Positions 1 through 3,187 of a stretch of 9,655 bases of DNA are shown one piece after another. A program made the translations under genes and the position numbers. The notes beneath the pieces are model-generated. The model made no database searches and was not told where the DNA came from. It saw nothing but the letters and a program-made list of their open reading frames with translations. Position 1 is the first letter of the stretch. Each line of letters starts with the position of its first letter. Source of the stretch: a virus (Duplodnaviria > Heunggongvirae > Uroviricota > Caudoviricetes); the IMG/VR virus record IMGVR_UViG_2645727635_000010, one strand, 5' to 3'.

Positions 1-96
1 ATCATCTGTTCTCCAATGACTAGTCTAAAAACTAGTATTAAGACTATCACTTATTTAAGTGATATTGGTTGTCTGGAGATTCAGGGGGCCAGTCTA
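1..96 (-). mobile_element. IS2 (IS3 family) left terminus: inverted repeat plus leader, with the transposase orfA start codon at 3..5; the element continues beyond the window start
   Basis: Seen in sequence: the reverse complement of 1..96 reads TAGACTGGCCCCCTGAATCTCCAGACAACCAATATCACTTAAATAAGTGATAGTCTTAATACTAGTTTTTAGACTAGTCATTGGAGAACAGATGAT. From memory this matches the left end of E. coli IS2 up to the orfA start (ATGATTGATG...). The stretch is AT-rich compared with the flanking phage DNA. Not verified by search. Confidence 0.8.
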
Positions 97-260
97 ATGG
101 ACGGGCGGAAAGTGACTTTTCCCAGATCTTCGGTATAGGGTTTGTCGCGGTTCGGGTATTCATGTGTTTCCACACGGCGACCGGTTCCCGCACTTTCTTC
201 TTCAACCTTAAACGGCACACCTCGAAATGACGCATCCTGAAGCCTGTCTTTCCACGTCAT
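97..260 (-). pseudogene. 5' fragment of a DNA circulation protein gene (phage Mu gpN-like), truncated by the IS2 insertion
   Basis: Translation from the ATG at 258..260 gives MTWKDRLQDASFRGVPFKVEEESAGTGRRVETHEYPNRDKPYTEDLGKVTFRPS. The W-x-D-R-L-Q-x-A-S-F-R-G-V-x-F and HEYP-x-RD-x-PY-x-EDLG pattern recalls the N-terminal domain of Mu N-type proteins. A GGAG Shine-Dalgarno lies 5 nt upstream. The frame runs into the IS2 end and stops at 81..83. The listed ORF 81..266 starts at an upstream GTG. Confidence 0.6.
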
Positions 261-270
261 ATACACTCCG

Positions 271-301
271 AAAATAAAAAAGCCACCTATTAGAAGGTGG
301 C
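271..301 (-). terminator. Rho-independent terminator downstream of the 322..852 gene
   Basis: On the minus strand: 6-bp GC stem GCCACC/GGTGGC (282..287 pairs with 296..301), 8-nt loop, then TTTTTTATTTT (271..281). It lies about 20 nt past the stop of the 322..852 CDS. Confidence 0.7.
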
Positions 302-321
302 CTTGTAATGAATTTTATTAA

Positions 322-852
322 TTAGCGAGTCAGAAACAACGAATCTTTATACTTTTGCTGTTGTTCATTTAAATACTTAGCTGTTTCATCGCTGGCAAAT
401 GGAAATATTACCGTATTTTTAGGCATGGTAATTTCTTTTTTGTCCAGCGTCAGAGTAAACATAGGAACATACTGAGCAGAGTAACGCACCGCAGAAACGA
501 GCTCTAGTTTAGACTCTTCAATAACACTTAAATTATCCAGGCTAACTTTCTCTTCATCTTTTTTCTTTGACGCATTTAAAGTTTTTATTACTTTATTTAA
601 TTTCTCCTGAAAATCCTCCTTAAAGTTTTCAGGATTGCCGTCGACAACAAGAATCTGTTCACCCTGATTATCTGGAAAAATAATCTTTGCACTTATCAAT
701 TTATTTTCTTTATAAACATCACCAAGTTTTATGGCTCCTCCAGATAACTGAATAATATGTTCATCTTTAAAGGAGATGTTGCCAGAGATTATGAGAGATG
801 AAAAAATAGCCGCTGCTCCAAGAATTACACTTGCTGTGATATAGCCTTTCAT
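322..852 (-). CDS. Hypothetical signal-anchored or secreted protein, 176 aa; AT-rich single-gene insert (moron) between the tape measure and gpN-like genes
   Basis: Intact ORF with stop at 322..324. N-terminal hydrophobic segment MKGYITASVILGAAAIFSSLIISG followed by a K/E/D/N-rich hydrophilic domain; no cysteine, so not a lipoprotein. The DNA is visibly AT-rich by eye, roughly one third GC against well over half for the neighbouring structural genes. It has its own promoter-like sequence upstream and a terminator downstream. No family recognised. Confidence 0.7.
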   Translation of the reverse strand: MKGYITASVILGAAAIFSSLIISGNISFKDEHIIQLSGGAIKLGDVYKENKLISAKIIFPDNQGEQILVVDGNPENFKEDFQEKLNKVIKTLNASKKKDEEKVSLDNLSVIEESKLELVSAVRYSAQYVPMFTLTLDKKEITMPKNTVIFPFASDETAKYLNEQQQKYKDSLFLTR

Positions 853-887
853 TTTTCGCCTATTAACATTTTTCTAAATGTGCATTA

Positions 888-915
888 ATTCTATCACTCT
901 ATTTATGACTTACAA
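888..915 (-). promoter_or_regulatory. Candidate sigma70 promoter for the 322..852 gene
   Basis: On the minus strand: -35 TTGTAA (910..915), 16-nt spacer, extended -10 TGaTAGAAT (888..896), about 35 nt upstream of the ATG at 850..852, in the intergenic region after the tape measure stop. Sequence-pattern prediction only. Confidence 0.35.
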
Positions 916-943
916 CCAGCAATACATGTGAGGGGAATCCTGG

Positions 944-2776
944 CTACCAAAATCGGGTATAGCCAACATCGTGATTTATATCAATGCCACTGGAGCGTGT
1001 TTCCGTAACCCGCATACCTGATGGCATATTTATAAATGATACCTTGATCTCACCATCAACTTTTGGCGCGGTAGCTTTATTAATCATGAAGGGATTCGAG
1101 CCTGTGGCATCGGAGGCGTTGTTTGCCTGAGCCGGATCCACCGCCGGATAAGGAGTGTATCCCCGCGCCGGTATTCCCGTCCCATAAGCATCATAAGCAC
1201 CCGCGCCCCACTGCGCAGAGTTAATGGCATCGACCGTGTCACCGGAACTGTCGGTAAACCACTCAATAATTGGCTTCAGCTTGTCCCACATATCCTGAAA
1301 CCACTTAACAACCGGCCCCCAGTTATTGATCACCATCCCCAGCGGCGACCAGGCAAAAACCTTCTTAAGAAGTTCCCAACCAGCCTCAAAATAAGGACCA
1401 ATGGTTTCCCAGAGCTTCTTAAAATAAGGTCCGACAACATCCCAGTTAGTGATAATTAATCCCGCAGCCAGAGCAATCGCCGTCGCAATCATGCCAATCG
1501 GCGTCATCGACATAATCCTGCTGACAATACTGATGGCACCGCCAACGCCCATCAATCCCAGTTTCAGAATCGCAAGACCGGCAGCAAGCCCGACGACGCC
1601 GCGAATAACCCGGGGATTTTCATCCGCAAACTTCGTGAATTTTTCCCCCAACACCCCCAGCCATTGCGTGATATTTTTAGCGTCACCAGAAAATGCGCCG
1701 CCAATAGCAGCAAGACCGTTAGTTGCGGTCCCCGTCATTGCCTCCCACAGGTTGGACAGCGTACCAAGCTGAGCCTGAACACGTTTATTCAGGCTGGCCT
1801 GTTTATTCATCTTCTGCTGGATCTGATCGTAGCCATCCTTTCCTTTATCGATCAGGGCATTGACCACCTGAAGGGTTTCGGCATCATCACCAAATATTGC
1901 CTTAAGTACACCTGTTCGCTTAACGTCGGTCAGTTTTCGCAACTTTGCCAGTTGCCTGAACATGTTATCAAGACCGCCAAAACTTCCTTTGCCGTCAGTA
2001 AAATCGAGCTGTACCCCGAGTTTCTGGCGGGCCATGACTTTATTGACGTCCCTGATTTTCTTAACACTTAATCCGGACTGGATAACTTTTCGCAGGGCAT
2101 TACCTGCCGACTCCCCGTTCATCCCCATCTGATCCATCATGACGCTGATGGGGGCAAGGCTCTGTGCAGCCTGAAGACCGTCCTTGTTCACCATCTTCAG
2201 AACAGAACTGGTTTTAGTGAAGAAGGACAACATGTTGGTATCGTCAACGCCCAGATAAAACGCCTTCTGGATAGTGTCGAACAGCCCCATCATGTCTTCT
2301 GACGCCGTTCCGGTAGCATCCTGCATCTTTGCCGCAAACTCAGCAGCCGCTTCCGGTGTTTTTTTCAGTTGTACCGCAAGATAAGCTGTCGCTTTACCCA
2401 CACCACCAAGAATGTTTTCTGCCGGGATCCCCTGACGCACCAGCATCTGCATCATGTTCTGGAAATCAGCCGTTGTACCGGGTAGCTGGTTACCCAGGCC
2501 AATAGCCAGTTTATTGATGTCCTGAAAGCGCTTTCCAACCTCACCGTTCGCATCCATCATGGCAACTTTCAGCCCGGTAGCGGCGTTTTCCTGATCGGCA
2601 TAAGATTTCAGGGAAAGCGTCAGACCCGCAGCCAGTCCGCCACCAAGCGCCAGCCCACCCTGTGACGCTTCTTCCGCCTGGCGTTTAAATCCCCGGATTT
2701 TCTTTTGCATTTTCGACAGCGCGGGAGAAAGCCTGTCGACACCGGTGATCAACGCCTTAAGCTCAAATTCAGCCAT
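944..2776 (-). CDS. Phage tail tape measure protein, 610 aa
   Basis: Long ORF directly downstream of the chaperone/frameshift pair. The N-terminus is charged and helical, the middle is rich in Ala/Gly/Met/Gln, and the C-terminus has Gly-rich hydrophobic segments and W-rich repeats, as in tape measure proteins. Start at 2774..2776 overlaps the end of the frameshift ORF. Confidence 0.9.
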   Translation of the reverse strand: MAEFELKALITGVDRLSPALSKMQKKIRGFKRQAEEASQGGLALGGGLAAGLTLSLKSYADQENAATGLKVAMMDANGEVGKRFQDINKLAIGLGNQLPGTTADFQNMMQMLVRQGIPAENILGGVGKATAYLAVQLKKTPEAAAEFAAKMQDATGTASEDMMGLFDTIQKAFYLGVDDTNMLSFFTKTSSVLKMVNKDGLQAAQSLAPISVMMDQMGMNGESAGNALRKVIQSGLSVKKIRDVNKVMARQKLGVQLDFTDGKGSFGGLDNMFRQLAKLRKLTDVKRTGVLKAIFGDDAETLQVVNALIDKGKDGYDQIQQKMNKQASLNKRVQAQLGTLSNLWEAMTGTATNGLAAIGGAFSGDAKNITQWLGVLGEKFTKFADENPRVIRGVVGLAAGLAILKLGLMGVGGAISIVSRIMSMTPIGMIATAIALAAGLIITNWDVVGPYFKKLWETIGPYFEAGWELLKKVFAWSPLGMVINNWGPVVKWFQDMWDKLKPIIEWFTDSSGDTVDAINSAQWGAGAYDAYGTGIPARGYTPYPAVDPAQANNASDATGSNPFMINKATAPKVDGEIKVSFINMPSGMRVTETRSSGIDINHDVGYTRFW

Positions 2777-2951
2777 GTGTGCGTTTCTCCTGCTCTATCC
2801 TGTTTGCCTGACTGACCAGCAAGGGAATTTCACTGATCGGCATATTCAGCAATTCGAAGGGATTAATGCGCCAGTAGCTGGCGCAGTCAAAGAAGCGATC
2901 AGTGAGGTATTCAGCCGTCAGGCCTGGAGGAAAAAACCAGCCACAAGCCAC
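2769..2951 (-). CDS. -1 frame extension of the tail assembly chaperone (gpGT-like frameshift product; fused span would be 2769..3187)
   Basis: This ORF is in the -1 frame relative to the chaperone and overlaps both the chaperone 3' end and the tape measure start. The minus-strand slippery heptamer T-TTT-TTC (plus-strand GAAAAAA at 2930..2936) sits in the overlap. A -1 slip there would give ...AGFF followed by PPGLTAEYL...RTHG. Confidence 0.7.
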   Translation of the reverse strand: MACGWFFPPGLTAEYLTDRFFDCASYWRINPFELLNMPISEIPLLVSQANRIEQEKRTHG

Positions 2952-3187
2952 GCCGCAGCATTCAGGTCTGCCGGAGACATCTGGTCGACAGAGCTTTGCG
3001 GCACTTTCGCCAGCCGCACAATGTATTTCGACACCACATGCGCCAGAAGTCTGACGGACTCATCCTGATTCATCTGGTAGGGATACCCCAGCTCGCGGAC
3101 ATCTTTCCCGGTGGGCTCATCAAACTCCAGTACGGAGAGTGTCTCGCCATGAGCGGTAATCGGTTTCTTTAACTCAAGCTCTTTCAT
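2918..3187 (-). CDS. Tail assembly chaperone (lambda gpG analogue), 89 aa
   Basis: Small acidic ORF between the tail tube and tape measure genes, the conserved position of the chaperone. Its start overlaps the tube stop (TAATG). The slippery heptamer sits 5 codons before its stop. Confidence 0.8.
   Translation of the reverse strand: MKELELKKPITAHGETLSVLEFDEPTGKDVRELGYPYQMNQDESVRLLAHVVSKYIVRLAKVPQSSVDQMSPADLNAAAWLVAGFFLQA
2930..2936 (-). promoter_or_regulatory. Programmed -1 ribosomal frameshift slippery site (T TTT TTC)
   Basis: X-XXY-YYZ heptamer in the zero frame of the chaperone, located in the overlap with the -1 frame ORF. Conserved chaperone frameshifting ahead of the tape measure gene is established for long-tailed phages. 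Confidence 0.6.

Follow-up and report, generated by a model that had tools for sequence, protein, structure and literature searches.

A moron cassette in a cargo slot downstream of the tape measure gene of SfV-like prophages encodes a predicted membrane-tethered periplasmic protein, a candidate exclusion factor

The window analysed here is the whole 9,655-nt stretch of the IMG/VR virus record IMGVR_UViG_2645727635_000010 (Caudoviricetes), and this report concerns a single AT-rich gene within it, ORF176, together with the signals that surround it. All long open reading frames (ORFs) of the window lie on the - strand, in the order capsid, connector, sheath, tube, tail chaperone, tape measure, ORF176 and the start of a gene related to gpN of phage Mu. 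An initial annotation, made from the sequence alone, had described a single-gene insert between the tape measure and gpN-like genes, and both its coordinates and its neighbours (Pfam families PF10145 and PF07157) are as claimed. The features of the locus are the following:

944..2776, - strand: tape measure protein gene, 610 aa, the upstream neighbour of ORF176 (PF10145, expectation value (E) 5e-27; RefSeq 'phage tail tape measure protein')
888..915, - strand: promoter-like site, with a -35 element TTGTAA (915..910), a 16-nt spacer and an extended -10 element TG-n-TAGAAT (893..888)
857..861, - strand: weak Shine-Dalgarno-like AGGCG, 4 nt upstream of the ATG, read from the sequence
322..852, - strand: ORF176, 176 aa, ATG start (RefSeq 'hypothetical protein' WP_000679479.1)
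269..304, - strand: intrinsic terminator, with a 10-bp stem (304..279), a 6-nt loop and a U-rich tail (278..269)
97..266 (ORF 81..266), - strand: 5' part of the DNA circularisation (Mu gpN-like) gene, the downstream neighbour, truncated after ~57 codons (PF07157, E 6e-16)

The base composition of ORF176 departs sharply from that of its surroundings. Its GC content is 0.343 (0.299 at third codon positions, GC3) and that of the insert (267..943) is 0.340, as compared to 0.545 for the remainder of the window. Segments of 531 bp taken outside the insert have a mean GC content of 0.548, with a standard deviation of 0.029 and a minimum of 0.484, which places ORF176 ~7 standard deviations lower and bears out the contrast with the GC-rich structural genes noted earlier. 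Downstream of the gene, the terminator stem (304..279 on the - strand) is followed by UUUUUUAUUUU, and the U-tail ends 3 nt upstream of the ribosome-binding site (RBS; GGAG) of gpN. The folding energy of the terminator is -15.6 kcal/mol (z = -5.6) and is equalled by none of 200 shuffles, so that, at the level of sequence evidence, the strong intrinsic terminator of the initial annotation is upheld. An Rfam scan of positions 1..1300 returned only sub-threshold matches to leader peptides, which were caused by the terminator hairpin. Hence, a distinct composition and an own terminator, both hallmarks of the autonomous genes known as morons, are found together at this locus.

The promoter-like site upstream of ORF176 had also been proposed, and this claim stands only in part. 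The site (915..888) is present and suitably positioned, and in a consensus scan it shows 9 of 12 consensus matches and a TG before the -10 element. However, two such matches were observed in the AT-rich DNA against 3.3 expected in shuffles, which is not above chance by count. Furthermore, the site is not conserved in the loci of orthologues, whose upstream regions cannot be aligned and contain good -10 elements in only some cases. Promoter activity and expression of ORF176 from the lysogen are predictions read from the DNA.

The initial annotation had called for related phages to be searched for adjacent tape measure and gpN genes, and this adjacency was found. In phages SfV, SfII and SfI, the flanks are ~97% identical to those of the window, ~620 bp are absent and the two genes lie 45 bp apart. 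ORF176 is accordingly an extra gene between otherwise adjacent neighbours, a further property of morons, and is an optional cargo gene as had been suggested. A cassette that was later lost may have left the short AT-rich spacer of SfV as its scar.

In other phages, the same position is filled by unrelated genes. Phage SKA5 carries an insert of similar size (L009 2415..2927), which encodes an unrelated signal-peptide protein of 164-170 aa with two Cys, belonging to PHROG 8976 and without a Pfam match. A homologue of this cargo, of ~164 aa and with the two Cys conserved, occupies the slot in the Pantoea phage AH07 (L012 2539..3033). In the Edwardsiella phage EPP-1, a third cargo (L013 2436..2813) encodes a cytoplasmic bacterial PH-domain protein, bPH_1 (PF08000, E 6e-47). 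Unrelated genes at one site mark the tape measure/gpN junction as a recurrent cargo slot. Of 5426 complete E. coli genomes, this type of tape measure is present in 917, ORF176 in 179 and the SKA5-type cargo in 85.

These comparisons bear directly on the possibility that annotation had overlooked a role of ORF176 in the structure or assembly of the tail. Its location between two tail genes, in the same orientation, would agree with such a role. However, the plaque-forming phages SfV, SfII and SfI do without it, SKA5, AH07 and EPP-1 carry unrelated replacements, and its predicted exported topology is incompatible with tail assembly in the cytoplasm. The identity of a tail protein was therefore rejected for ORF176, and this alternative can be considered effectively refuted.

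A base-by-base comparison placed the left boundary of the cassette within the tape measure coding sequence. When measured against SfV and SKA5, identity exceeds 93% up to ~1037 and falls to ~75% over the last ~30 codons (944..1036; the value of 75% was measured in 1036..977), which are more AT-rich. It vanishes at the tape measure stop codon and returns at ~270, just before the RBS of gpN. The tape measure protein thus had its C-terminal tail, encoded by these last ~30 codons, exchanged together with the cassette. Neither direct nor inverted repeats were found to flank the cassette, which hence carries no transposon-like signature.

The terminator itself proved to be a common property of the slot. 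A distinct strong hairpin followed by a U-run is present after each orthologue in the Leclercia and Edwardsiella loci. More generally, every slot variant, including the empty one of SfV, possesses its own stable and different hairpin, followed by the same U-run, just before the conserved RBS of gpN. Four of these hairpins are located as follows:

L010, 2338..2388: slot hairpin of SfV
L009, 2940..3010: slot hairpin of SKA5
L002, 10528..10580: slot hairpin
L019, 1610..1675: slot hairpin

Because a terminator precedes gpN in all slot variants, late transcription must read through it in every one of them. In lambdoid phages, the Q antiterminator renders late transcription resistant to terminators. 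The terminator had been suspected to polarise late transcription, but this special problem can be set aside, since the empty slot of SfV also has a hairpin and U-run and the intact prophage encodes Q.

ORF176 is not confined to E. coli. Orthologues with 53-59% identity are likewise flanked by tape measure and gpN genes in prophages of Leclercia and Lelliottia and in one viral contig, and an orthologue with 41% identity was found in the same slot in Edwardsiella anguillarum. In all of the loci in which both flanks are available (78/78), including those of the 41% and 59% orthologues, the gene lies between tape measure and gpN; a locus search with closer alignment yielded mainly identical E. coli copies. 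The GC content of the Leclercia orthologues is also low (0.35-0.39 versus 0.49-0.60 for their neighbours). The view of ORF176 as a one-off recent insert is therefore contradicted by orthologues of 41-59% identity, with equally low GC, in the same slot in four genera. It was also observed that the GC3 of orthologues stays low (0.29-0.38 in loci L002 and L006) at 53-59% protein identity, in hosts and phages of 50-60% GC. Selection on composition, such as H-NS-type silencing, or an ongoing exchange of genes within a pool that is itself AT-rich could account for this persistence.

ORF176 has diverged further (53%) than the sheath, tube or gpN (63-86%). Nevertheless, the 77 E. coli copies show 14 synonymous and 9 non-synonymous variant sites, the latter all conservative, and 76 of the 77 copies are intact. 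The small number and the conservative nature of the non-synonymous changes, together with the intactness of the copies, indicate that the gene is under purifying selection.

The composition and hydropathy of the ORF176 protein agree with the N-terminal hydrophobic anchor or signal and the Lys/Glu/Asn-rich, cysteine-free domain described initially. The protein contains neither Cys nor Trp, is rich in Lys (21), Glu (14) and Asn (10), and has a mean Kyte-Doolittle hydropathy of 2.1 over residues 5-23. No match was found in Pfam (zero families at E <= 1), NCBIfam or PADLOC, and tblastn against 50,697 phage records was likewise without a match. The only named match of ORF176 is PHROG 5485, which has no assigned function and is matched over the full length of the protein (residues 1-176/176, E 3.8e-108); the family enters PHROGs via prophages. 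When 1.84 billion representatives were searched exhaustively with a profile, 77 clusters at 50% identity were identified, nearly all of 165-200 aa (~175). Hence the claim that the protein matches no recognised family holds for Pfam, NCBIfam and PADLOC and fails for PHROG 5485 and its 77 clusters. A literature search on ORF176 or WP_000679479.1, which covered work on morons beside DNA-circulation genes and on SfV-like prophages, returned nothing.

Members of the family share a common plan, comprising a hydrophobic N-terminus, the motif N-[IV]-[IL]-x3-4-G-x-V-x-L-G-x-V-Y-x-E, a conserved Tyr124 and a C-terminal F/Y-[IL]-x-K. The distant members P0033, P0062 and P0072 likewise match PHROG 5485, and when 56 family members were scanned against Pfam, nothing beyond scattered noise below the threshold was obtained. 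An AlphaFold2 model built with the family alignment reached a predicted local distance difference test (pLDDT) score of 91.3. It predicts a transmembrane helix (residues 2-23), a linker and a beta-hairpin (33-42) bearing the family motif G-x-[VI]-x-L-G-x-[VI]-Y-x-E, followed by an alpha/beta domain of four strands and two helices (strand, strand, helix, strand, strand, helix) ending at residue 171. No solved structural relative of this domain was detected. The modelled helix, the hydrophobic stretch at residues 5-23 and the lack of matches in Pfam, NCBIfam and PADLOC are in line with the exported or membrane-anchored protein of no named family that had been anticipated. The helix may serve as a stable anchor or may be cleaved after Gly24, where the sequence offers a permissible site (-3 Ile, -1 Gly). 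Some family members contain VGxC strings resembling a lipobox; these were not accepted as lipoprotein signals, since the Cys falls in the middle of the hydrophobic helix. The family has no conserved Cys or His and no catalytic-looking motif, and the domain therefore most likely binds rather than catalyses. Taken together, the model and the family alignment point to a conserved protein of an uncharacterised family, predicted to be exported or tethered to the membrane on its periplasmic side.

A search of predicted viral structures with Foldseek gave one real match, the 'lipoprotein' A0A2H4P829 (144 aa) from the Pseudomonas phage ventosus (E 2e-6, template modelling (TM) score 0.66). Its gene (MG018930 51995..52429, - strand, corresponding to L104 6995..7429, - strand) is annotated in GenBank only as encoding a hypothetical protein, and ventosus is a virulent 97-kb phage of a plant-pathogen host. 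In this protein, a lipobox (LLTGC) is directly followed by TIIHTRSAVVNVGEVTAE, which resembles the family motif, and its alignment to the family profile with hhalign gave an E value of 7.6e-5 over 125 columns. The replacement of the helix by a lipobox in the ventosus homologue suggests that the exported domain is the common functional part and that the tether is interchangeable.

In Pseudomonas and marine bacteria, three distant homologues are located on small integrative islands, beside a divergently oriented serine recombinase of ~189 aa. The islands lie at the following positions:

L014, 5434..8534: island locus of a distant member
L018, 6935..8531: island locus of a distant member
L102, 631..2185: island locus of a distant member

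One island also carries an integrase and a DUF5906 primase-like gene. In the L014 island, a 180-aa signal-peptide protein is encoded immediately upstream of the homologue and a Mrr/type IV restriction-like nuclease is found two genes away. The presence of homologues on prophages, on islands and in a virulent phage shows that the family is an accessory cargo of several kinds of mobile elements.

From these observations, a single explanation can be assembled. The region from ~270 to 1036 would be a moron cassette, consisting of a promoter-like site, one gene and an intrinsic terminator. In the lysogen, the cassette transcript would end at the hairpin, while during lytic growth the Q-modified polymerase would pass the terminator into gpN. 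The ORF176 protein would insert into the inner membrane through its single N-terminal helix, possibly a cleavable signal, and a compact alpha/beta domain of ~150 residues would be held in the periplasm near the membrane. There, it would act as a prophage-expressed superinfection-exclusion or entry-blocking factor, so that incoming phages would be hindered, at the periplasm or inner membrane, in delivering their genomes. The exclusion reading is suggested by the lack of catalytic-looking residues, the periplasmic face of the domain, its carriage by mobile elements and its tape measure neighbour. The parts of this explanation differ in strength. The element is very probably a well-formed moron whose product has a single N-terminal anchor topology, and the cargo slot that it occupies in SfV-like phages is newly delineated. 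An exclusion function, proposed by analogy with HK97 gp15 and T4 Imm and not by homology, is possible and is put forward tentatively, as the best supported of the roles considered. The explanation as a whole, a moron cassette with a tethered periplasmic exclusion product, appears plausible, with the balance tilted somewhat against it.

Three observations weigh against this explanation. The promoter at 915..888 is a consensus match in AT-rich DNA that is not conserved upstream of orthologues. The ventosus homologue belongs to a virulent phage, so that expression from a prophage is not universal to the family. In addition, the divergence of ORF176 does not track that of the tape measure protein: in the Ec-Lpn pair, the tape measure is 75% and the ORF 53% identical, while in the Lad-Lpn pair these values are 38% and 59%, which as a comparison of sequences argues against tight co-evolution.

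Because the promoter-like site is at chance level and unconserved, ORF176 could be expressed solely within the late operon. It might then be a late lytic accessory protein whose gene lacks an active promoter and is transcribed together with the tail genes by the Q-modified polymerase, and which acts in the envelope, where possible roles would be to stop secondary infection, to prevent inactivation of progeny on debris, as T5 Llp does, or to tune lysis. The co-orientation of the gene inside the late operon fits this alternative, as does the lipoprotein nature of its remote homologue in a virulent phage, again reminiscent of T5 Llp. However, a strong terminator and a sharply distinct composition are hallmarks of autonomous morons (PMC3594210), and the distant homologues reside on non-phage islands, which have no late operon. 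A purely late role is accordingly judged unlikely.

The exported location of the moron product, common to many conversion factors, would equally suit a lysogenic-conversion or host-fitness factor unrelated to phages, whose domain modifies or protects the envelope (serum, stress, adhesion or a periplasmic host protein). The anatomy of the moron would be identical, and ORF176 carriers are drawn from many hosts and niches. Moreover, the same prophage type already holds a second, known moron, iss, which encodes a bor-like serum-survival lipoprotein and is located in the intact prophage (L001 33636..33929) between the HNH/terminase and lysis genes. This possibility is nonetheless considered rather unlikely, since ORF176 shows no similarity to known virulence or fitness families, and the homologues found on islands of Pseudomonas and marine bacteria and in a virulent phage of a plant pathogen fit poorly with a niche-specific host trait.

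The Mrr-like nuclease near one island homologue, the carriage of the family by prophages and islands and the membrane anchor could also be taken as signs of a single-gene membrane abortive-infection defence, which would sense infection and damage the membrane instead of blocking entry. Yet such a system seems very unlikely for a protein with no PADLOC match, a single transmembrane helix, no pore-forming or enzymatic signature, and most of its mass in the periplasm, far from cytoplasmic infection cues. Beyond the locus itself, it may be speculated that ORF176 and its family of ~77 clusters constitute an unrecognised class of membrane-tethered periplasmic exclusion proteins, which blocks genome delivery by contractile-tail phages and rides in the slot behind the tape measure gene, although so broad a claim is doubtful. 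If it were true, members on prophages and islands would be anchored by a transmembrane helix and the one in a virulent phage by a lipid, and the co-exchange of the last ~30 tape measure codons could reflect self-compatibility.

The remainder of the window identifies the prophage in which the cassette resides. Its DNA recurs in many complete E. coli chromosomes with 99.5-99.8% identity, where the intact prophage comprises a lambdoid Q antiterminator, lysis genes, a terminase, an HK97-type head and then a Mu-type contractile tail. The prophage is thus of the SfV-like type, with a lambdoid head and regulation and a Mu-type contractile tail. Homology of the window to intact prophages begins at base 97, and bases 1..96 correspond to an IS2 end lying inside gpN after ~57 codons, which is 95-96% identical to thousands of IS2 copies. 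Since the IS2 end truncates gpN, the prophage copy in the window is defective. Upstream of the tape measure gene, a slippery heptamer T_TTT_TTC was observed at 2930..2936 (- strand), close to the end of the tail assembly chaperone ORF (2918..3187). A -1 shift at this heptamer enters the frame at 2769..2951, which terminates just within the tape measure start; the heptamer is the conserved G/GT-type programmed frameshift site of tail chaperones. The 141-nt gap in this frameshift region between the chaperone and tape measure genes is unannotated in RefSeq.

Morons are the main route by which prophages alter the phenotype of their hosts, and ORF176 is carried by ~3% of complete E. coli genomes (179/5426). 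As a moron it is an element of an expected kind, and its value is that of a well-defined candidate and not of a surprise. The tape measure/gpN junction accommodates at least three unrelated cargo families, two of which are exported. This slot and the ORF176 family, with its confidently modelled and unmatched fold and its interchangeable anchors, offer experimental handles on exclusion by temperate phages of Escherichia and Shigella with Mu-type tails.

Several known systems resemble ORF176 in part. The bor/iss and lom genes of lambda are AT-rich, autonomous genes in the late regions of lambdoid phages, from which the prophage expresses envelope proteins, and iss is found in the same prophage type. 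However, they belong to other families, occupy other locations and act in serum resistance or adhesion, and are not directed at phages. Two relatives lie closer in sequence or structure, namely PHROG 5485, matched over the full length, and the ventosus protein A0A2H4P829, which shares the fold and the post-anchor motif; neither is functionally assigned, so that membership is uninformative. Against the characterised exclusion and defence proteins (Imm, Sp, SieA, Sim, Llp, Cor and the PADLOC systems), no profile or fold match to ORF176 was found.

The Llp protein of T5 and the Cor proteins of phi80 and N15 are outer-membrane lipoproteins that inactivate FhuA. They are comparable to ORF176 as phage-encoded, membrane-tethered periplasmic proteins, in their case entry blockers, and the ORF176 family includes a lipoprotein-anchored member in ventosus. 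In contrast to Llp and Cor (the latter covered in PMC3594210), ORF176 itself cannot be a lipoprotein because it contains no Cys, and no homology to either was detected. T4, a phage with a contractile tail, encodes Imm and Sp, two small proteins anchored in the membrane whose site of action is the inner membrane or periplasm, as is proposed for ORF176; binding of Imm to the tape measure protein has been reported (bioRxiv 10.64898/2026.03.06.709160). Unlike ORF176, a prophage moron, they are encoded by early genes of a virulent phage, and no similarity in sequence or fold between them and ORF176 was detected.

The gp15 protein of HK97, reportedly described by Cumby et al. in 2012, provides a further parallel. 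It is a small, YebO-like protein, whereas ORF176 has 176 aa and a predicted folded periplasmic domain. Pfam includes a YebO model, and no similarity of ORF176 to the YebO family was found in the Pfam scan (zero families at E <= 1). The slots also differ, that of gp15 being upstream of the tape measure gene and that of ORF176 downstream, in a contractile-tail phage. Morons in the sense of Juhala and Hendrix have the classic arrangement defined for HK97 and HK022, and gp15 is the product of a moron adjoining the tape measure gene, an inner-membrane exclusion protein that blocks DNA entry (PMC3594210). Like gp15, ORF176 is a single-gene moron in the tail operon, beside the tape measure gene, with a distinct composition and its own terminator. 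The two also have in common an inner-membrane anchor, predicted in the case of ORF176, from which gp15 blocks genome entry and leaves the outer-membrane receptor untouched (PMC3594210).
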